From Candidatus Undinarchaeota archaeon (GTDB taxonomy: Archaea; SpSt-1190; JASMDC01): DNA of 64,000 nucleotides. The notes under the pieces were generated by a model that worked only from the letters and a program-made list of their open reading frames with translations, was not told where the DNA came from and made no database searches. Positions within the stretch are counted from its first letter, which is position 1, and every line of letters begins with the position of its first letter. The stretch is taken from assembly GCA_964519305.1 (NCBI GenBank), contig CAZFHY010000001.1:32001-96000 (forward strand), given 5' to 3'. Positions 401 through 16,897 of this stretch are shown here, piece by piece. The position numbers and the translations under genes were made by a program.

Positions 401-437
401 GAGATCAGGGAATATTACTTGTATATACTATTCTTGA

Positions 438-453
438 GGAATCTATATAAAAC
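438..453 (+). promoter_or_regulatory. BRE/TATA promoter of microprotein 1
   Basis: ggaatcTATATAAaac in an AT-rich island about 50 nt upstream of the ORF at 501. Confidence 0.55.
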
Positions 454-500
454 GATATTAGTATAGTATTGTTTAGAGAGAGCAACCCCCGAGGTGGCGT

Positions 501-584
501 GTGAGAATGATAACACTTCCGAGCCTAGCCGTGGCCGTGCTCACCGTGCTGTATGCCGTTAAAGGATACAGCGAGGTCGAGTAA
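501..584 (+). CDS. Microprotein 1, single TM helix, (MR)MITLPSLAVAVLTVLYAVKGYSEVE
   Basis: Hand-translated; RBS GAGGTG at 491-496; paralogous to 801-890 and 1069-1176. Confidence 0.75.
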   Translation: MRMITLPSLAVAVLTVLYAVKGYSEVE

Positions 585-736
585 CGCGCTGACGTGATCC
601 CCACTGGTAAACGACCCCTACGGTCCGGTCCAGCCCGACCACACAGATATCGGAGCGACCGTCGTCGCGGATGCTGGTCCATTCCCAGAGAGGTCCACCC
701 ATCCCCGTTTATAATTATCATATATATTAACAGTGT

Positions 737-751
737 GAAATCCATATAACC
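737..751 (+). promoter_or_regulatory. BRE/TATA promoter of microprotein 2
   Basis: gaaatccATATAAcc, close in sequence and spacing to the unit-1 promoter. Confidence 0.5.
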
Positions 752-800
752 CTGGAAACACATCTACTACTTGTAGCGAGAACACCCCCTGGTGATGCCC

Positions 801-890
801 ATGTTGACAGTACCCGTTTTTGTAATGGCAATTCTGACCGTGCTCTATGCGATCCAAGGATTCCGCGAGGTCAAGAACAATCTCGCCTAG
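801..890 (+). CDS. Microprotein 2, single TM helix, MLTVPVFVMAILTVLYAIQGFREVKNNLA
   Basis: Hand-translated; RBS GGTGA at 791-795; shares LTVLYA.xG[YF]xEV with microprotein 1. Confidence 0.75.
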   Translation: MLTVPVFVMAILTVLYAIQGFREVKNNLA

Positions 891-1068
891 CTAGAATCCC
901 TTGGCTGCGAGCATGTCGCACAGGTCGTTCTATGACCTTTTCTATCGCCTTTTTCACTAGGAAGAGCCTTACATCATAGTAGTGGTATAGTACGATATAT
1001 ACGTTAACGTTATAGCTCAGTAATGATAATACTTACTGTAACGAGAAAATAGTAGGGAGGAACTGCAC

Positions 1069-1176
1069 ATGGTGACACTGCAATTGATCGCACTTGGGTT
1101 GGTCATCATCCTGTACGCAGCGCATGCCTATAGCGAGCTTTCAGAGGACCATCGGTCCCTGTCACACGACTTCTAG
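1069..1176 (+). CDS. Microprotein 3, single TM helix, MVTLQLIALGLVIILYAAHAYSELSEDHRSLSHDF
   Basis: Hand-translated; RBS GGAGG at 1056-1060; LYA..AYSEL motif in register with microproteins 1 and 2. Confidence 0.72.
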   Translation: MVTLQLIALGLVIILYAAHAYSELSEDHRSLSHDF

Positions 1177-1248: not shown

Positions 1249-2112
1249 TCAACGCTGGTCCATTAGCCAACGGTTCATCCTTATCCGGTTGATCTTACCC
1301 ACCCTCTCCTTGATTATGACCTTCTTTCGCTCCAGACGCTGGAGCGCGCGCGAGAGCGGGTACTTGTCGAGGGAAAGACGTGAGCGGATCGTGGTCTGTA
1401 GGAGCTCACCGTCCGACTTGAGCAGTTCCTGGACTATCGCCTTCTCAGTATCGTCCAGGGTCTTGAGCACATAGTCCAGTCCGCGCGTCGGTTCACCCTC
1501 TTCCTCCTCAGGCTCCCCCGCCTCTTCGGGATTGCGACTGATGGCCACAAGGTAGGCGGTCCACCCCAGGGCGAACACCAGAAAGACTATGGGCAGTGCA
1601 AGCGCCATCTCACCACTGAGCCTATAGGACACGTTGATGAGGCCAATGGGATCGTCAAAGCTCACGATGCGGGCCTCGACAAGGTGCTGCGAAGGGATCG
1701 TCGAGTTGCGTGGAAGGAAGTGGGCCCGCTCGGGAAGAGCGACCGAGTAGGTGATACCTTGTGTGAAGTGAGGTATGAAGGTCAGAGTGCTCGTCTTCCC
1801 ATCGGTCTTCACCAGACCTGAGATATCGTACTTGACCGTTACCGGGCCACCATAGGGATTATGGACCGAAAGCCGTTTGGAGGCAGCCGCGTAGTCGTAC
1901 GGGAGCATTCCGGAGCCTGTCCGTATATCGAAATCCCTGGGTTCATGGAGGAAGCGCATGGTGAGCGTCGTGTTCCTGACCATGTTGACCACATAGGATA
2001 CGTGGACCAGTCCATCTGCGTCCACGTCCAACCGACAGGAGTTGGGTAGCGCCTGGCCAAGTGTTACTAGGCAGAGCACAAGAGCGATAATTAGGACCTG
2101 GCTTCGGGTCAC
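1249..2112 (-). CDS. Membrane-anchored winged-helix (MarR-like) transcriptional regulator with an extracellular N-terminal domain
   Basis: Signal peptide, beta-rich domain, TM helix, then LDDTEKAIVQELLKSDGELLQTTIRSRLSLDKYPLSRALQRLERKKVIIKERVGKINRI wHTH; start placed at GTG 2112, just downstream of a TATA. Confidence 0.75.
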   Translation of the reverse strand: MTRSQVLIIALVLCLVTLGQALPNSCRLDVDADGLVHVSYVVNMVRNTTLTMRFLHEPRDFDIRTGSGMLPYDYAAASKRLSVHNPYGGPVTVKYDISGLVKTDGKTSTLTFIPHFTQGITYSVALPERAHFLPRNSTIPSQHLVEARIVSFDDPIGLINVSYRLSGEMALALPIVFLVFALGWTAYLVAISRNPEEAGEPEEEEGEPTRGLDYVLKTLDDTEKAIVQELLKSDGELLQTTIRSRLSLDKYPLSRALQRLERKKVIIKERVGKINRIRMNRWLMDQR

Positions 2113-7059: not shown

Positions 7060-8319
7060 TCACTGGCTCTGGCTCCACTGCTGGAACTGCTCCGCCCACT
7101 CGCCCTGGTTCGTAGGCTCTTCAGGCGGCGGCTCGTACGATGGCTGTTCTTCCCTCGGTTCGTTCGACCCAGTCATCATCTTCACGCGCTTGATCAGTTC
7201 CTTGATGCGCGGCATCTCCACACCGGCCAGCAGGATGACCACCTCGAACCGGTCGTAGCTGGAGATGACGGCGTTCCCCCAGCGCACGGTACCGCCGGCG
7301 CCATCATTGAGCTGGCTCCCGAGCCAGCTGATTGCCTCGTGGAGCTCGGAGACCTTGGGCGAAGTGGGTCCGGCGACGATGAGCGCCGCTGAGCGGGCAC
7401 TGGTGTACACCGCCTGGGTCGTCGTCCCCTGGAGCACTGCCATCTGGACCAGATTGGTGAGGCTCGAGCGGGCGTTCCCCTCGGCGTCCACGGGCGCTTC
7501 TGCCCGTCCCAAGCAGCACAGCACGCCGTAGTCGCTGGTCTTTGCCTCGAGGATCGTGTTCTTCAGGTCAGTGGAGTCCATGACCAGGTCCTGCTCCTGC
7601 GAGATGGGCAGGCCCGAGATGGTCAGCAGCTTGATCTGCTTGAGGATCTCCCGGTTGATCTGGTCGAAGATCTCGTTGATACCCACCCGCCCACGGACAT
7701 GGGCAGGGATGCGCTCGTAGAACCACTCGTTGTCGGCGATGATGAGCCCGTCCAGGCGGGGCAGGAGGTTCTTCATTCCCCATAGTGCGTTCTCCTCGTA
7801 CCGGCCGCTCTCGTACCCGAAGGGCAGCAGCCCGATGCCGATCTTGACGAAGTCGTTCGGGTTAACGACGTGGCGCTGGATGAACACCTCGTCGATTATG
7901 TCCGCCGCCACCGGTGAGCACCCGCAGCCGGAACCGCCGCCAAGGGAGGTGACGATAAAGCAGAAGTGGGGCATGATGCCGCGGCCAAGGGTGTTGACTG
8001 TGATGGTGTTTCGGATGAGGTCGCGGTTCTGGTTGGCCACACCCTTGCAGTACTCGGGATTGCCGCCGCACCCCTTTCCTCCGCCGATCAGGATGCGCGA
8101 CTCCTCGGGGATGTTGAGGATGTTGAGGTCGCGGATGTTGGTGTTCAGGGCCACCGAGGCGAAGTAATCGTCCACACGCAGAGTGGAGATGCCCATGGAA
8201 CGGGCGAAGGTCAGCATCTGGCTGACCACCGAGCGCTGGAACTCGGCCACGGCGTCGAGCACGCGGGTGCCCCCCTGACCCAGCCCCATTGCGAATATCT
8301 GGCTTCCTGAGACGTCCAT
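7060..8319 (-). CDS. Tubulin/FtsZ superfamily GTPase (divergent CetZ/FtsZ-like)
   Basis: GLGQGG, LNTNIRDL, GKGCGGNP, SLGGGSGCG (tubulin signature variant), LLPFGYES, ADNE, FDQIN, VMDSTDLKNTI; acidic Pro/Gln tail; start at 8319 or 8328. Confidence 0.9.
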   Translation of the reverse strand: MDVSGSQIFAMGLGQGGTRVLDAVAEFQRSVVSQMLTFARSMGISTLRVDDYFASVALNTNIRDLNILNIPEESRILIGGGKGCGGNPEYCKGVANQNRDLIRNTITVNTLGRGIMPHFCFIVTSLGGGSGCGCSPVAADIIDEVFIQRHVVNPNDFVKIGIGLLPFGYESGRYEENALWGMKNLLPRLDGLIIADNEWFYERIPAHVRGRVGINEIFDQINREILKQIKLLTISGLPISQEQDLVMDSTDLKNTILEAKTSDYGVLCCLGRAEAPVDAEGNARSSLTNLVQMAVLQGTTTQAVYTSARSAALIVAGPTSPKVSELHEAISWLGSQLNDGAGGTVRWGNAVISSYDRFEVVILLAGVEMPRIKELIKRVKMMTGSNEPREEQPSYEPPPEEPTNQGEWAEQFQQWSQSQ

Positions 8320-8337
8320 GATGCACACTTCCCTTGC

Positions 8338-11107: not shown

Positions 11108-12673
11108 TCACCACCCCAGGTACCAGTAGGCCTCCTCGAACTTTTTGACGTACTCCTCGGGCGTGTGCCGCCTCAGGTTCTCCGACTCGACCACGAACTT
11201 GAAGCGGACGATACCGCCTCCTCCACCGATCCGCCATCGGACGAAGAACAGGAACGATACGAAGGCGAAAGCGAACGATACCGCCACGAAGGTGCACTCG
11301 AACCCGTAGATCTCGCACACTAGGCCCGCAGGATGGAGGGTGACCGGGAATGTCTCGTTCCCCGCCTCGAAGCCACGGTAGTAGATACGACCGATGAGGT
11401 TGCAGGCGAGCGGTTCACGGGTCGCGGGCGTGCTCACGTTGCACCGGTCTATACCGTACTCGCCAGCTCCGCAGTGTCGGTCGAGCAACGTCTCGTTCCC
11501 TCCGCAGCGAAGGAAGAGCTCATAAGGAAGACCGGGGTCAGTGAGGCTGGCGAACACGATGGTACTTGCGTTCCCCTCGATGTCCTTTGCTACTGGCCGG
11601 AACTGCTCGAAAGCGGGTGAGAACTCCCTCACCTCGATCTCCAGCCCCTCCTCCTGCTCGTCGCCGTCCGTGGAGAAGGTCACCGATCCCTCGTAGATGA
11701 TCCGGCCCTCGTACTCGTGGAGTGGCAGGCGTCCCAGGTGGAGCGGGCAAGTGATCTCGTCGAGGATGTTGGTGCAGGCCTGGTCCACCGGAAGGGTCTG
11801 ATTGACGTACGCGGTGTTGTTCCAGGTGAGGATGATCGAGATCGTGTTGTCGCGCTGGAGTATATCGTTCCACTTCTCAATGGATGTGTTTACGACCACG
11901 GGATCGTACTGGTTCACGAGCCGGGTGTAGTTGGTAAGAGTGAACAAGGGGTCCTCGGCGTACACGACCGCGAAGGGCGTCTCCATGTAATCGACGATGC
12001 GCGATCCAGTTACGATCTCAAGGCGCGCCGTGTACCTCCCTCGCTCGTCGGGCACGTCCACGCTCACCGCATGTCGGATGCTGCCCTGCATATCGCAGCT
12101 GAGGTCGATCGGTTGATGGCTGCGCGCAACGACCTCCCGGCCCGGCCCGAGCACGTACAGGGTCGTGTTGTAGCTCACACCGTACTCCGGGCGTCGGATG
12201 ACGTAGTCGATATAGAGCTGCTCTCCGGGGCCGAACACGTCCTTGCTCAAGCCAGCCTCGAGCGCGGTGTTGACGAAGAACACGGTATGGATGTTGAACG
12301 GGATGGACTCTGACACGGGGGACGTGACATCGTAGGTGAAGTAGATCGTGTGGTCACCAGGGGTGCTGCATAGCGGGGCCTTCGTCAGGATGGTGAACGC
12401 ACGCTCGACGTCCTTGCGCACCTCGAGCTTGGGCAGACCGCCCGGGTAATCGGTACCCCAGTGGTACTGGGAGTTCGTATCGTTCTTCCGGTTGGCGATG
12501 CCGTACGCGGGCTCATCGATAAGACCGCGTACCGTGACCTTGTGGACGCCCTGGTCGCCAGGGAGGAGCACGTGGCGTACGTTCTGTACGTCGACGAGGA
12601 CCTGCTCGCCCGCAGAGACGCTCGCAGCGCACAGAGCGCATACGAGAACGAGAACAAGAAGCTTGGACGGCAA
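11108..12673 (-). CDS. Secreted, C-terminally anchored Ig-repeat protein
   Basis: Signal peptide, beta-rich domains, TM helix FVAVSFAFAFVSFLFFV, short cytoplasmic tail. Confidence 0.7.
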   Translation of the reverse strand: MPSKLLVLVLVCALCAASVSAGEQVLVDVQNVRHVLLPGDQGVHKVTVRGLIDEPAYGIANRKNDTNSQYHWGTDYPGGLPKLEVRKDVERAFTILTKAPLCSTPGDHTIYFTYDVTSPVSESIPFNIHTVFFVNTALEAGLSKDVFGPGEQLYIDYVIRRPEYGVSYNTTLYVLGPGREVVARSHQPIDLSCDMQGSIRHAVSVDVPDERGRYTARLEIVTGSRIVDYMETPFAVVYAEDPLFTLTNYTRLVNQYDPVVVNTSIEKWNDILQRDNTISIILTWNNTAYVNQTLPVDQACTNILDEITCPLHLGRLPLHEYEGRIIYEGSVTFSTDGDEQEEGLEIEVREFSPAFEQFRPVAKDIEGNASTIVFASLTDPGLPYELFLRCGGNETLLDRHCGAGEYGIDRCNVSTPATREPLACNLIGRIYYRGFEAGNETFPVTLHPAGLVCEIYGFECTFVAVSFAFAFVSFLFFVRWRIGGGGGIVRFKFVVESENLRRHTPEEYVKKFEEAYWYLGW

Positions 12674-12730
12674 CCTATCACAACACCACAGCGGGTATCT
12701 TTATATCTCTTGCACGAAAGGAAGCCCCTG

Positions 12731-14677
12731 ATGGCCTCCCTGAAGCTCGACAGGAACAGGTGCACGAAGTGCGGAAAGTGCGTGGTCGCATGTCCGAACA
12801 ATGCCATCGTCATGCGTAACTTCCCTGCGTTCTGCAAGCACTGCGACCTCAAGGCCGCACCGTGCTACCAGGCCTGCCCGCTGGGCGCCATCGTGGACGT
12901 AGGTAACGGTATTCTCAAGGTGGACGTGAACCGCTGCGATCCCTACCAGTGCAAGAAGGAGTGCCAGAAGTGGTGTCAGTGGGATGGCGTGTTCGTGTTC
13001 GGCGACAAGGCCAAGAAGTGCGATCTGTGCTTCGACTACCAGAACCAGCCCAACTTCATCCCCAAGTGCATCGAGGTGTGCGACGCCAAGGCCATCACCA
13101 CCGACCTCATGCAGGAGGTCGTGCTCGACTACGCAGGATGGAGCGCCGAGTCCATTCCCCAGGAGATCATCGCAGAGGTCCTCCAGAGCTTCACCTACGG
13201 CCAGGTCGTCAAGGTGCAGGGCCAGCCGGTCCCGTACTACTACGTCAACTCGCTACCCCAGCTCACCGACTGGGCCCAGACCAAGCTCCTGGGTCTCACC
13301 ATCAAGAAGTACATCGACACCGGCAAGGCGGACCAGGACCCGTTCTCCTCGCTGATGATGATCATGCGCAAGTCCGCCCAGTGGGTGGGCACCAGCGTGG
13401 ACGAGAACATGCTAAAGGAGCTCGCCAACATCGCTCTCATGAACACGAAGGGCTACGGGCCCTTCGACGTCCTCCTCGAGGACGACCAGCTGGAGGAGTT
13501 GATGTGCATCGGCCTCGGTAAGGAGAGGCCAATGTATGTCTACCACCGCGAGTACGGGATGCTGCGGACCAACCTGTTCTTCCCCGACGAATACATGGAC
13601 TTCACGGTGGACCCACCGGAGAAGAAGTCCGGCGAGGAGGTCCTGTGGAAGATCATCGAGAAGATGATCGAGCCCATGGGGGAGCGTATCGACCGCCAGC
13701 ACCCCAGGGTCAACGCGCAGCTGCCGGACGGCTCCCGTCTCCACGCGTGCATCAAACCAATGGGATTCTCCGGACCGTCGGTGACGATCCGAAAGTTCCG
13801 GGCCGCACCGTTCTCGCCCATCGACACCATCAGGTTCAACACCATCTCTCTGGAGGCCGTGGTGTACTGCTGGATCGCAATGGAGAGCGAGATCTCGATG
13901 ATCGTGGCCGGAAACACAGGTTCCGGAAAGACCACCTCGCTCAACGCATTCTCTACGTTCATCCCTCCCGAGGAGCGCATCCTCATCCTCGAGTCAACGC
14001 CCGAAATCAATCTGCCCCACCCGCACAAGGCACGTCTGGTCACCGTCAACAACGCTGACCCGCCCATCGGTATGCAGGACATCATCGAGGACACGCTGCG
14101 TATGCGGCCCGACCGTGTGGTAGTAGGAGAGGTCCGGAGCGGCCCAGAGGCACAGGCGTTCATGAACTCGGTACTGGCAGGTCAGGCACGCGGTTCCATG
14201 TGCACGTTCCACGCACAGGACGCAGTATCTGTCGTCAAGCGTATGAAGAACCCTCCCATGAACATCTCACCTCTCGACCTGCAGGTCCTGGACCTCGTCT
14301 TCGTCCAGCGACGTATGTCGCGGGTCGAGGGCAGCAAGCGGAAGCAGATCCGTCGCGTCGTCGAGATCGCCGAGATCGACAAGCATAATATGAGCGACGA
14401 GGGCGTACCGGTCATCCATCCGATCTATCGCTACAATCCGGACACCGATGTCGTCGAGCGCGTGCACTCGGGTCTGTCCCCGCTAGAGGAGCGCATATCC
14501 AAGTACAACCTCTGTCTCGACGAGGGGCAGTTCTGGGGCGAGGTACAGGCGAGGACCAAGATGCTCAAGTACCTGATGGCCAACAACATCCGTGACATCA
14601 AGGTCTTCATGGACTACATCATCCAGTACGGTACGGATCCTGCTTTCAAGCAGAGCATAATCAACATGAACATCTGA
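12731..14677 (+). CDS. Type IV pilus/type II secretion assembly ATPase (TadA/VirB11/ArlI family) with N-terminal 4x[4Fe-4S] domain
   Basis: Walker A GNTGSGKTT, LILESTPEI, LRMRPDRVVVGEVR, TFHA; N-terminal 16 Cys in four ferredoxin motifs; ATG 12731 follows TATA near 12700. Confidence 0.9.
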   Translation: MASLKLDRNRCTKCGKCVVACPNNAIVMRNFPAFCKHCDLKAAPCYQACPLGAIVDVGNGILKVDVNRCDPYQCKKECQKWCQWDGVFVFGDKAKKCDLCFDYQNQPNFIPKCIEVCDAKAITTDLMQEVVLDYAGWSAESIPQEIIAEVLQSFTYGQVVKVQGQPVPYYYVNSLPQLTDWAQTKLLGLTIKKYIDTGKADQDPFSSLMMIMRKSAQWVGTSVDENMLKELANIALMNTKGYGPFDVLLEDDQLEELMCIGLGKERPMYVYHREYGMLRTNLFFPDEYMDFTVDPPEKKSGEEVLWKIIEKMIEPMGERIDRQHPRVNAQLPDGSRLHACIKPMGFSGPSVTIRKFRAAPFSPIDTIRFNTISLEAVVYCWIAMESEISMIVAGNTGSGKTTSLNAFSTFIPPEERILILESTPEINLPHPHKARLVTVNNADPPIGMQDIIEDTLRMRPDRVVVGEVRSGPEAQAFMNSVLAGQARGSMCTFHAQDAVSVVKRMKNPPMNISPLDLQVLDLVFVQRRMSRVEGSKRKQIRRVVEIAEIDKHNMSDEGVPVIHPIYRYNPDTDVVERVHSGLSPLEERISKYNLCLDEGQFWGEVQARTKMLKYLMANNIRDIKVFMDYIIQYGTDPAFKQSIINMNI

Positions 14678-14689
14678 GGGCCCAATCGC

Positions 14690-15967
14690 ATGACGGACGA
14701 CATGTTCTCGGTGAAGGCAGGCCAAGACAAGTCTTGGAACCAGGGGGCACAGGACTGGGCCCAGTCTCCCGGGCAGGCCAACCAAGGCTGGGGAGCACCG
14801 GCACCGCCGGCCATGCAACAGGCACCGAGCCACCCGCCCGGACCCATATCACCGCCGGCCATGCAACATGGACCCGGACCCATGCAACACGGACCTGGGC
14901 CAATGCAGCACGGACCCGGCCCTTCACCCATGGGAGGCGCTACGGCCCCCGTCGGTGGCGGCGACTGGTACTCGACGTCCGTTGGTGAACAGACACAGCA
15001 GACCACTGATGTCGAGGAAAAAGAGGCAGAGCAGCGCTCACGGTTCAAGTTCATGGGCCCAATGCTCCTGCGCATGGGCCCCGAGCGGATCAAGTGGTAC
15101 CGCCAGGCCTGTGATGCCGTGGAGTTCTTCATGTTCGCCGACGACTGGGTGCTTGTCTCCTCGCTGATAGGTATCGCTGTATTCGCCCTGGCGTTCCCGA
15201 TACTCACATCGCTATCTGACGCATTCATCATGATCGTCCTCGTCCCCGTGACCGGAGGCGGTGTGTTCGCCATCCTGATCTCATATCCTATCTTCAAGTT
15301 CGAGAGCCGCAAGGACGAGATCGAGACCAACCTCCCGGACGCCCTGTTCCAGGCGGCGAGCAATCCGCCCCGGACCCACTTCGTGGAGCTGCTGACGGGC
15401 CTGACGAAGATCGGGTACGGACCGCTGACCGACGAGCTGCGGGTCACGGTGAAGGAGATCGAGAAGGGCTCGTCCGTCAAGGAGGGTCTGGAGAAGCTCT
15501 CCGAGCGCAACCAGTCGAAGATCCTGGAGAGGGCCTGCTACCTCCTAATCCGGGCGCAGGAGCAGGGTGTAGATATCGTCGAGGCCCTGGCCGCCCTGGC
15601 CACGGACATCAAGGAGACCAAATACCTCCTGCGTGAACAGGCCGCGTCGCTCCAGCTCCAGAAGATCACACTTCTGGCAGCGGGGGCCGTCCTCATCCCC
15701 CTCATCCTCGGGTTCGTCGTAGGGCTGGCGGAGTCCATGGGCAATTTCAGCGAGGACAAGGCAGAGATCATCGCTGCACAGGTCCAGACGGTGCAACCAA
15801 TCTTCCTCGGGTACGTGGTCATCCACGCCCTCGAGGCGTGTCTGGCCATCGGCCGTCAGGAGGGCGATGCCAAGAAGGCCGTTTACTATGTGATCCCAGT
15901 GCTCCTGATCGCGATTATTCTGTTCCAGTACGTGGCCCCTCAGGCCATGATGATGTTCATGGGGTGA
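14690..15967 (+). CDS. TadB/TadC-like pilus platform protein (T2SSF domain) with Pro/Gln/Gly-rich N-terminal extension
   Basis: IETNLPDALFQAAS...GYGPLTDEL....EIEKG plus multiple TM helices; directly downstream of the ATPase. Confidence 0.85.
   Translation: MTDDMFSVKAGQDKSWNQGAQDWAQSPGQANQGWGAPAPPAMQQAPSHPPGPISPPAMQHGPGPMQHGPGPMQHGPGPSPMGGATAPVGGGDWYSTSVGEQTQQTTDVEEKEAEQRSRFKFMGPMLLRMGPERIKWYRQACDAVEFFMFADDWVLVSSLIGIAVFALAFPILTSLSDAFIMIVLVPVTGGGVFAILISYPIFKFESRKDEIETNLPDALFQAASNPPRTHFVELLTGLTKIGYGPLTDELRVTVKEIEKGSSVKEGLEKLSERNQSKILERACYLLIRAQEQGVDIVEALAALATDIKETKYLLREQAASLQLQKITLLAAGAVLIPLILGFVVGLAESMGNFSEDKAEIIAAQVQTVQPIFLGYVVIHALEACLAIGRQEGDAKKAVYYVIPVLLIAIILFQYVAPQAMMMFMG
14861..14923 (+). 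repeat. 3 x 21-bp coding repeat (MQHGPGP)3
   Basis: atgcaacatggacccggaccc / atgcaacacggacctgggcca / atgcagcacggacccggccct differ only at synonymous sites. Confidence 0.85.
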
Positions 15968-15994
15968 TATGAGATAGCAACTTTCGGCGACGAG

Positions 15995-16897
15995 ATGGAG
16001 GTGTACGAGCAGGAGAGCAGGTTCCGCCAGTTCCTGTTCACCTTCAATCAAGCGTTCGCCATCTCGAACCGCCTCCGGGAGAAGGACCGGAACGAGCTGT
16101 CGGTCGTCCTGCGCAAGGCGCGCATGGACTATGATCCTGAAGAGTACGTCACTCTCACCTACGTTGCATGGATCGCTTCGTTCTTCGGCGTACTCCTCGT
16201 CGGCGGTATCTTCGTCATCGCGCTCGGTGACGTCGTAGGCTACACCAACATGATCGTGGGCGACGCCATTCTCGCGTTCTTCGTGAGCACCATCGTCTAC
16301 TCCTACTCCAAGAGCTATCCGTACGGGGAGATCAAGGACATCGGCCTCCGGATCGAGGCGGAGCTGCCTTTCATGGTCCGGAACCTCGCCATCGAGCGCG
16401 AGATGGGCATCCCCATCAAGGACTCCTTCGAGAAGCTGGCCGAGGAGGAGGGGCTCCTGGGACGCGAATCGCGGGTCATCCTTGCCGAGATCGAGCGCGG
16501 CTACTCGGTGACACAGGCACTTCGCGCTTCCTGTCAGCGTACGGAGAGCCGGTTGTACGTGCGCACCATGGCACAGCTCACCCACGCCCTGGAGATAGGT
16601 ACCGAGATCAAGTCTGTGCTCAACGCCATGGCAAAGGAGGCCGAGACCAACCTTCGTATCGCGCTCAAGGAGTACTCGGGCAAGGTATCCACGCTCTCCA
16701 TCATGTACGTCATCGTGGCGGCCGTGGTCCCCGCCATCCTGGGCGCAGCGCTCATCCTCTCGGTGCTCTTCGAGGAGGGCTCCACCCAGCTCCTCTCCGC
16801 GGACATGCTCATGCTCCTCTACTGGGGCCTCTTCCCCCTGGCCAACTACACCATCCTGGCCGTCATGAAGCGGGGACAGCCGTACATAATGGTCTGA
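15995..16897 (+). CDS. Second TadC-like pilus platform protein (T2SSF domain)
   Basis: IEAELPFMVRNLAIEREMGIP...EIERGYSVTQAL, multiple TM helices. Confidence 0.85.
   Translation: MEVYEQESRFRQFLFTFNQAFAISNRLREKDRNELSVVLRKARMDYDPEEYVTLTYVAWIASFFGVLLVGGIFVIALGDVVGYTNMIVGDAILAFFVSTIVYSYSKSYPYGEIKDIGLRIEAELPFMVRNLAIEREMGIPIKDSFEKLAEEEGLLGRESRVILAEIERGYSVTQALRASCQRTESRLYVRTMAQLTHALEIGTEIKSVLNAMAKEAETNLRIALKEYSGKVSTLSIMYVIVAAVVPAILGAALILSVLFEEGSTQLLSADMLMLLYWGLFPLANYTILAVMKRGQPYIMV

Follow-up and report, generated by a model that had tools for sequence, protein, structure and literature searches.

Three very small genes lie in tandem on the plus strand of the window, the 64,000-nucleotide stretch of archaeal DNA that was analysed, in the gap between ftr (stop codon at 400) and a convergent gene (ending at 1249). 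The units occupy 405-1176, and their open reading frames (ORFs) are very probably real, translated protein-coding genes, as judged from their conservation in a sister species. The predicted products form a new orphan family of a known kind, the small single-pass membrane proteins, found in one uncultured archaeal genus only.

The array is a clean case in which comparative sequence by itself identifies three ORFs of 25-35 amino acids as selected genes. Annotation is poor for small membrane proteins in general, and above all for those of uncultured archaea. The lineage to which the family is confined is little known and has, at 3.6 Mb, an unusually large genome for its class, and the family could mark membrane biology specific to it. 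If the peptides were RNA-controlled toxins, type I toxin-antitoxin systems would be extended to archaea; should they bind a larger membrane protein instead, they would be a handle on the regulation of that protein. Overall, the result is a sound improvement of annotation and not a surprising one.

Three tandem units and their peptides

The first ORF (ORF1, 507-584, plus strand) encodes 25 amino acids, MITLPSLAVAVLTVLYAVKGYSEVE, which are a single hydrophobic helix and the tail KGYSEVE. ORF2 (801-890, plus strand) encodes 29 amino acids, MLTVPVFVMAILTVLYAIQGFREVKNNLA, with the tail QGFREVKNNLA. ORF3 (1069-1176, plus strand) encodes 35 amino acids, MVTLQLIALGLVIILYAAHAYSELSEDHRSLSHDF, in which the hydrophobic helix is followed by an acidic, His-rich tail, HAYSELSEDHRSLSHDF, that ends in LSHDF. 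The ATG-to-ATG spacing of the units is 294 and 268 nt. These ORFs are the ones for which an earlier note on this DNA, made from the letters alone, had proposed three units with peptides of 25-35 amino acids, and its gapless alignment of the peptides is reproduced over 25 columns with six invariant residues, M1, T3, L15, Y16, A17 and E23. At the DNA level, the units are similar 5' of the ATG, where each has a pair of AT-rich boxes and a leader block resembling TGTAGCGAGAA, and dissimilar 3' of the stop codon.

A profile hidden Markov model (HMM) of the three peptides was searched against 98,645 stop-to-stop ORFs of at least 18 amino acids from all six frames of the whole 3.63 Mb genome. ORF1-3 were recovered at E values of 3e-18 to 9e-15, and the next match had an E value of 0.49. 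By this search, the repeat is genuine and is present in exactly three copies in the genome.

The best 17-residue windows of the peptides start at residue 1 or 2 and have Kyte-Doolittle values of 2.16-2.42. The helix begins at residue 2 without a charged leader, and the first charges, K19 or R22 and then E23, come after it. The net charge is -1 for ORF1, +1 for ORF2 and -3 for ORF3, and none of the peptides is cationic. Positions 3, 10, 17 and 20 are small residues in all six sequences from the two species. The conserved residues do not lie significantly on one face of the helix, since 3590 of 10,000 permutations reached the observed helical conservation moment.

ORF1 also contains an inverted repeat at 543-554/566-577, ACCGTGCTGTAT / ATACAGCGAGGT, which is made by the LYA and YSE codons and is found in the sister species too, with 16-nt arms. 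It is present in unit 1 only and may be incidental.

Selection on the ORFs

The single same-genus genome compared, here called G001, was aligned pairwise over 2.6 kb with the window. It carries all three ORFs at the corresponding position, with ftr on one side and the counterpart of the convergent gene on the other. Nucleotide identity between the species is 83% for ORF1, 79% for ORF2 and 84% for ORF3, compared with 66-70% for the spacers and 85-91% for the flanking genes. Gaps take up 0 of 276 columns in the ORFs and 14 of 580 in the spacers, and identical columns number 227 of 276 and 393 of 580, respectively (Fisher p = 6e-6). Differences in the combined ORFs fall 14/7/27 on first, second and third codon positions (chi-square p = 0.0016); ORF1 alone has 2/2/9. 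The dN/dS ratio is 0.115 for ORF1, 0.329 for ORF2 and 0.241 for ORF3, and 0.225 when these are combined, with flanking genes at 0.05-0.18 and the two off-frames at 1.12 and 3.71. The ATG and the stop codon are retained in all six ORFs. The earlier note had named dN/dS across homologs as a check, and its proposal that the array encodes paralogous single-TM microproteins on which purifying selection acts is supported.

Each ORF is nearest to its positional counterpart in G001. Among the paralogues, dS is at least 1.1 and often saturated, and identity is 49-67% for nucleotides and 24-52% for amino acids. Because the orthologues pair up and the paralogues have diverged to this extent at synonymous sites, the triplication is older than the split of the species, and all copies have been retained. 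It had been suggested that the DNA has diverged more than the peptides. As a statement about percent identity this is incorrect, but the purifying selection that was meant by it stands, because paralogue dN/dS within the window is 0.19-0.27. By these measures, ORF1-3 are old paralogues held by purifying selection in both species compared.

The selection evidence rests on the DNA of two species and on a few protein variants. Six natural variants of ORF3 from a public protein collection change only at positions 6, 24-26, 28 and 30, and the helix and LSHDF are invariant among them. One contig of about 200 nt, present in two runs at a depth of ~4.5, represents a third lineage and spans 821-935 gaplessly. 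It was found among the contigs of four out of eight DNA runs, from two studies, that may be the source of the window's DNA; the remaining contigs in these four are identical to the window. When its listed differences are read against the codons from 801, ORF2 of this lineage has three synonymous changes plus F21Y, K25S and N27D.

A different account of the conserved blocks is that the ORFs are untranslated and the blocks are regulatory elements of DNA or RNA. The inverted repeat in ORF1, kept in both species, would fit it. The excess of third-position differences speaks against it, as does a dN/dS that is low in frame and above 1 out of frame. Indels occur in the spacers and not in the ORFs, start and stop codons are conserved, and the peptide similarity of the paralogues persists despite saturated dS; there is also no Rfam match at E<=1. 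This account is disfavoured and very improbable.

Distribution and family identity

Outside the window's own genome, the family was found in one other genome. The HMM gave G001 as the only real match over 40 relatives, and over a phylum set of 17 genomes that includes the window's genome and G001 it was confined to this genus. All other matches in these two sets had E values of 8.5e-4 or weaker and lay mostly inside far longer frames of up to 682 amino acids. In 57 other genomes no relative from outside the genus was seen. Searched against 1.84 billion protein representatives, the profile had four matches at E<=0.001, which are three own-genus clusters and one repetitive 268-amino-acid protein. 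A homology search in this genome and its relatives had also been among the checks proposed for the array, and its outcome is three copies here and G001 as the sole other carrier genome.

Scans at the DNA level, which used narrow patterns, gave a similar result. Two of 52 pattern matches in metagenomes were confirmed, and both are 100% identical to the G001 locus and therefore add no new lineage. In a collection of genomes, one of 38 matches was confirmed, and it is the G001 contig. With the ORF3 alignment, none of 30 pattern matches in viral contigs was confirmed. A separate scan of viral contigs had yielded one match, out of 18, that passed tblastn; it lies antisense inside a gene of 524 amino acids and was rejected as spurious.

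No described family was matched either, which agrees with the earlier statement that the family was not recognised. Pfam gave 0 matches at E<=10. The only NCBIfam match was PsbN (E 0.12, 12 bits against a cut-off of 70), and the only match among PDB sequences was the first transmembrane (TM) helix of GPR55 (E 0.24). The best score in the ESM Atlas was 0.81, with nothing meaningful, and PADLOC and PHROGs likewise gave no meaningful match. A search of Rfam gave nothing at E<=1. Protein libraries under-sample such peptides, because ORFs this short often go uncalled.

The ORFs had been described as unannotated, which is only partly right. ORF2 and ORF3 are present in the protein sets of NCBI, JGI, ENA and Logan, and ORF1 in JGI/IMG. 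The window's own database entries are without a name, whereas for ORF2 and ORF3 the sister-species entries bear the name 'hypothetical protein'.

Promoter-like boxes and leaders

Each unit has two AT-rich boxes 5' of its ORF, box A and box B, with box A lying ~12-20 bp 5' of box B. All coordinates that follow are on the plus strand. In unit 1, box A (421-428) is an 8-bp palindrome, GTATATAC, and forms an exact-match block with G001 inside a poorly conserved spacer; it would be either an operator or a second TATA. Box B (440-452) is TATA-like and is preceded by GAGGAAT, with 436-444 conserved and an A/T run at 444-452. The leader (472-506) holds a conserved TTAGAGAGA block at 473-481 and the Shine-Dalgarno match GAGGTG at 491-496.

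In unit 2, box A (708-740) has A/T runs at 708-718 and 720-730, contains TATATTAACAGTGTGAAA and ends in an 18-nt exact interspecies block at 723-740. Box B (739-749) is the TATA-like aatccatataa, and a conserved TTGTAGCGA lies at the predicted transcript start, at 771-779. The Shine-Dalgarno match is GGTGAT at 791-796, and in G001 it extends to 9 nt, AGGTGATCC. In unit 3, box A (984-1004) has TATAGTACGATATATACGT and a 19-nt exact block at 986-1004, the longest non-coding block of the region. Box B (1009-1015) is the TATA-like gttatag, which lines up with its counterparts in units 1 and 2 and is less conserved than box A. The Shine-Dalgarno match of this unit is GGGAGG at 1055-1060. The TATA strings that had been quoted for the three units are thus all in place (aatctatataa at 440-450 in unit 1), as are the Shine-Dalgarno strings.

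The distance from the Shine-Dalgarno match to the ATG is 10 nt in unit 1, 4 nt in unit 2 and 8 nt in unit 3. The matches are complementary to the 3' end of the genome's own 16S rRNA, GGATCACCTCCT, and those of units 1 and 3 are weaker in G001 than in the window. Counting from box B by the usual archaeal distance from TATA to start, the transcripts are predicted to begin at ~472, ~772 and ~1038, on the conserved leader block. Starts near 475, 775 and 1040 had been guessed before, close to these predictions.

The exact blocks of box A, which are 8, 18 and 19 nt in units 1-3, are the longest conserved non-coding blocks in the region. The region has 11.8 runs of eight A/T per kb, 13 times the genome-wide density of 0.92 per kb. 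One promoter per unit is plausible, given AT-rich boxes that are conserved between the species and rare in a genome of 60% GC. For box A, the candidate roles are those of an operator, of a second TATA and of a promoter for the minus strand. In an nhmmer search of the own genome with the six promoter-plus-leader regions, only the three units were found (next match E 0.72), and there is no wider regulon for this reason. A sigma-70 scan found one promoter-like site, not above shuffled sequences. No conserved T-rich terminator was seen between the units in the comparison with G001, and read-through between units is therefore possible. The terminator scan found one terminator-like hairpin, at 922-938, in a stretch that is merely 55-60% conserved.

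After ORF3, between the convergent genes, lies a block at 1190-1211 that reads GGGGAT(G/A)TCCCGGGAAGGCCCA. The block is conserved, with a 15-nt exact match at 1197-1211, and contains a short palindrome; it may serve to terminate transcription from both sides or to bind a protein or other factor.

These elements bear on the main rival explanation, in which the locus is an archaeal type I toxin-antitoxin-like array. Each unit would encode a small, membrane-active peptide, the synthesis of which an antisense or divergent small RNA would repress, on the model of the E. coli tandem loci ldr-rdl and ibs-sib. This is a possible but rather unlikely reading. We know of no proven archaeal case of a type I toxin since 2010. 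In the parts of the survey by Fozo et al. (2010; PMC2887945) used here, the type I toxins known at the time are seemingly absent outside Firmicutes and gamma-Proteobacteria. The same parts describe toxins of less than about 70 amino acids with a predicted TM region, and the peptides here have 25, 29 and 35 amino acids and the hydropathy values given above. The features by which that survey searched are all seen here: short TM ORFs stand in tandem within one intergenic region, the C-terminus is polar and aromatic and the range is narrow. Duplication within one intergenic region, which is frequent in such loci and not obligatory, is present in the form of the three units. Box A provides a second, better-conserved AT-rich box 5' of each putative TATA, and a minus-strand RNA from it could run over the 3' end of the preceding unit.

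This minus-strand option applies to units 1 and 2 only, however, as ORF3 has no downstream AT-rich box able to drive a cis-antisense RNA. No conserved case of complementarity between a spacer and a 5' leader was found in either species. Folding of the spacers and putative mRNAs gave nothing notable, and the predicted mRNAs are not unusually structured (z scores of -2.15, -0.52 and +1.14). The 3' flanks are dissimilar between the units, the peptides are neutral to acidic, and Rfam gives no match at the locus at E<=1. More doubtful still is the reading that archaea would have here their first tandem array of the type I toxin kind, with three promoter-equipped units and RNA control from box A or from read-through of the convergent regulator gene.

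Genomic context

Upstream of the array are mtd and ftr, genes of the H4MPT C1 pathway; ftr encodes formylmethanofuran-H4MPT formyltransferase (Pfam FTR_C). Downstream is the convergent gene (1249-2112, minus strand), which encodes a winged helix-turn-helix (wHTH) regulator of 287 amino acids with matches to Pfam DUF7343 (27.5 bits against a cut-off of 27.6) and MarR_2. From its N terminus, this membrane protein consists of a signal or anchor, an outer domain, a TM helix and an acidic linker, and the winged helix forms its C terminus. Its divergent neighbour encodes a secreted protein of 937 amino acids without Pfam domains. No partner gene shares an operon with ORF1-3, the neighbours being mtd-ftr upstream and the regulator and 937-amino-acid protein genes downstream.

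A link between the peptides and the membrane-anchored regulator, as had been suggested, is not supported, since adjacency is its sole basis; the model for it would be a small-protein modulator of a membrane-bound regulator, as with MgrB and PhoQ. Full-length relatives of the regulator are few. The TM-wHTH module as such is matched 12 times in this genome and 11 times in the congener, with matches in 39 of the 101 genomes searched, and the numbers in these two genomes point to a predicted family of one-component regulators, bound to the membrane, that has expanded. Between the divergent regulator and 937-amino-acid protein genes, the 50-nt spacer (2119-2168) is 96% identical between the species, above its coding flanks, and is centred on the palindromic TTATATAA at 2135-2142, in a TATA region. 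It is probably a shared bidirectional promoter from which both genes would be almost leaderless.

Further features of the region concern the lineage more than the array. Upstream of the array, two adjoining giant ORFs of 2109 and 2638 amino acids (plus strand, contig positions 15735-29964; 1735-8064 and 8048-15964 within the upstream stretch) have no Pfam domain at E<=0.001, and the 521-amino-acid ORF before them is likewise without one. A CetZ-type tubulin homologue (Tubulin and CetZ_C domains) is encoded at 7060-8328 on the minus strand, flanked by several Pfam-less ORFs of 413-670 amino acids. The genome has 3.63 Mb and is 99.8% complete with 4.3% contamination, and the congener has ~3.8 Mb. 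By comparison, the 15 further genomes in the set that share its class and phylum all have 0.6-1.2 Mb. This would be a large-genome lineage with the H4MPT pathway (mtd, ftr) placed beside small-genome archaea.

A type II/IV secretion ATPase of 738 amino acids is encoded at 12461-14677 (plus strand), with T2SSE at residues 393-627 and an N-terminal 4Fe-4S ferredoxin motif at residues 96-116, which looks like an unusual fusion. Two T2SSF platform genes follow it, at 14690-15967 and 15995-16897.

These type IV pilus-like genes, 11-16 kb downstream of the array, are the ground for a reading in which the peptides are pilin-like or secreted signalling peptides. Peptides that are almost pure hydrophobic N-terminal helices would suit it, as would the presence of the ATPase and platform genes at 12461-16897. 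The signature of a class III prepilin is a short charged leader and a peptidase cleavage site before the hydrophobic helix, and neither precedes the helix here. Moreover, there is no pilin match in Pfam or NCBIfam at E<=10, and several unrelated genes separate the array from the pilus-like genes. The earlier suggestion of signalling peptides is unsupported, as the peptides have neither a leader nor a cleavage motif and no gene for export lies beside the array. The pilin-like reading is disfavoured and hardly credible.

Proposed function

We propose, tentatively and by analogy, that each peptide crosses the membrane once and packs against a larger membrane protein in an accessory or modulatory role; as a whole, this proposal stands somewhat short of an even chance. 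The three paralogous, separately promoted genes would be translated into microproteins that insert into the membrane. By the positive-inside rule, a single-pass N-out/C-in topology is likely, because the first charges follow the helix. The N terminus would enter the membrane directly, and the short polar, acidic C-terminal tail would probably be cytoplasmic. The helix would then pack against the larger protein, with the peptide serving as a subunit that assists or modulates it. The residues expected to matter are the small ones at 3, 10, 17 and 20, the interfacial L15-Y16-A17 and E23, and the three promoters would allow the cell to choose the isoform that is made.

Packing against a partner is favoured because the invariant residues L15-Y16-A17 and E23, placed at the C-terminal membrane interface, and the four small residues fit specific helix packing. 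Most membrane-damaging peptides have cationic tails, which the net charges of ORF1-3 are unlike. Most characterised free-standing bacterial small membrane proteins, toxins aside, bind larger membrane proteins. Prli42 and YohP are examples of such partner-binding proteins in the sections drawn on here of a recent preprint (bioRxiv 10.1101/2025.10.28.685009). Counting against a partner, a tandem arrangement and a narrow range are seen more typically in type I toxins than in accessory subunits, as far as the consulted parts of PMC2887945 describe them.

The peptides could instead work alone, as small membrane proteins that affect the bilayer itself or form homo-oligomers, with no specific larger partner, for example in protection from stress, as with sP24. 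In the portions of the preprint used here, sP24 of Methanosarcina mazei is described as a small archaeal protein with one TM helix, specific to its lineage, from which growth and cell size benefit when salt stress is applied (bioRxiv 10.1101/2025.10.28.685009). Separate promoters would suit condition-specific induction, and the small residues at 3, 10, 17 and 20 in all six sequences could serve self-association. On the other hand, L15-Y16-A17, E23 and the LSHDF of ORF3 have been kept over saturated dS, which suggests a specific contact and not a bulk effect. We consider stand-alone action unlikely, though worth keeping in mind beside packing against a partner.

Comparison with known systems

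Known small membrane subunits and modulators include KdpF, CydX, AcrZ, MgrB, Ost4 and sarcolipin. ORF1-3 have no sequence match to a profile of a known small subunit or modulator family or to a solved chain (Pfam, NCBIfam, PDB, ESM Atlas). Free-standing small membrane modulators such as KdpF, AcrZ, MgrB, CydX, Prli42 and YohP share with the array a size of 25-35 amino acids, one TM helix, conserved interfacial residues and promoters of their own. Unlike them, the peptides here have no family match (Pfam, NCBIfam and PDB sequences, E<=10) and no partner gene in an operon, and there are three paralogues where those modulators have one gene.

The bacterial tandem type I loci ldr-rdl, ibs-sib and zorO-orzO, as presented in the excerpts of PMC2887945 relied on here, share with the array tandem short single-TM ORFs in one intergenic region with upstream signals of their own. 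Also shared are the polar and aromatic C-terminal tail, the very narrow range and the fact of being partly missed by annotation. The array differs from these loci in its archaeal host, in the lack of a predicted antisense or divergent small RNA for all three units, in having no similarity to known toxin families and in its neutral to acidic peptides.

The nearest archaeal likeness is to sP24 of M. mazei (spRNA24/asRNA94), drawn by description; the profile search of 1.84 billion representatives gave, apart from the repetitive protein, no match outside the genus. For sP24, both an antisense RNA and a phenotype under salt stress are documented, whereas the peptides of the array are known here from sequence alone. 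According to the passages of the preprint used here (bioRxiv 10.1101/2025.10.28.685009), sP24 has in common with the array that it is archaeal, lineage-specific and single-TM, with a predicted N-out/C-in topology.
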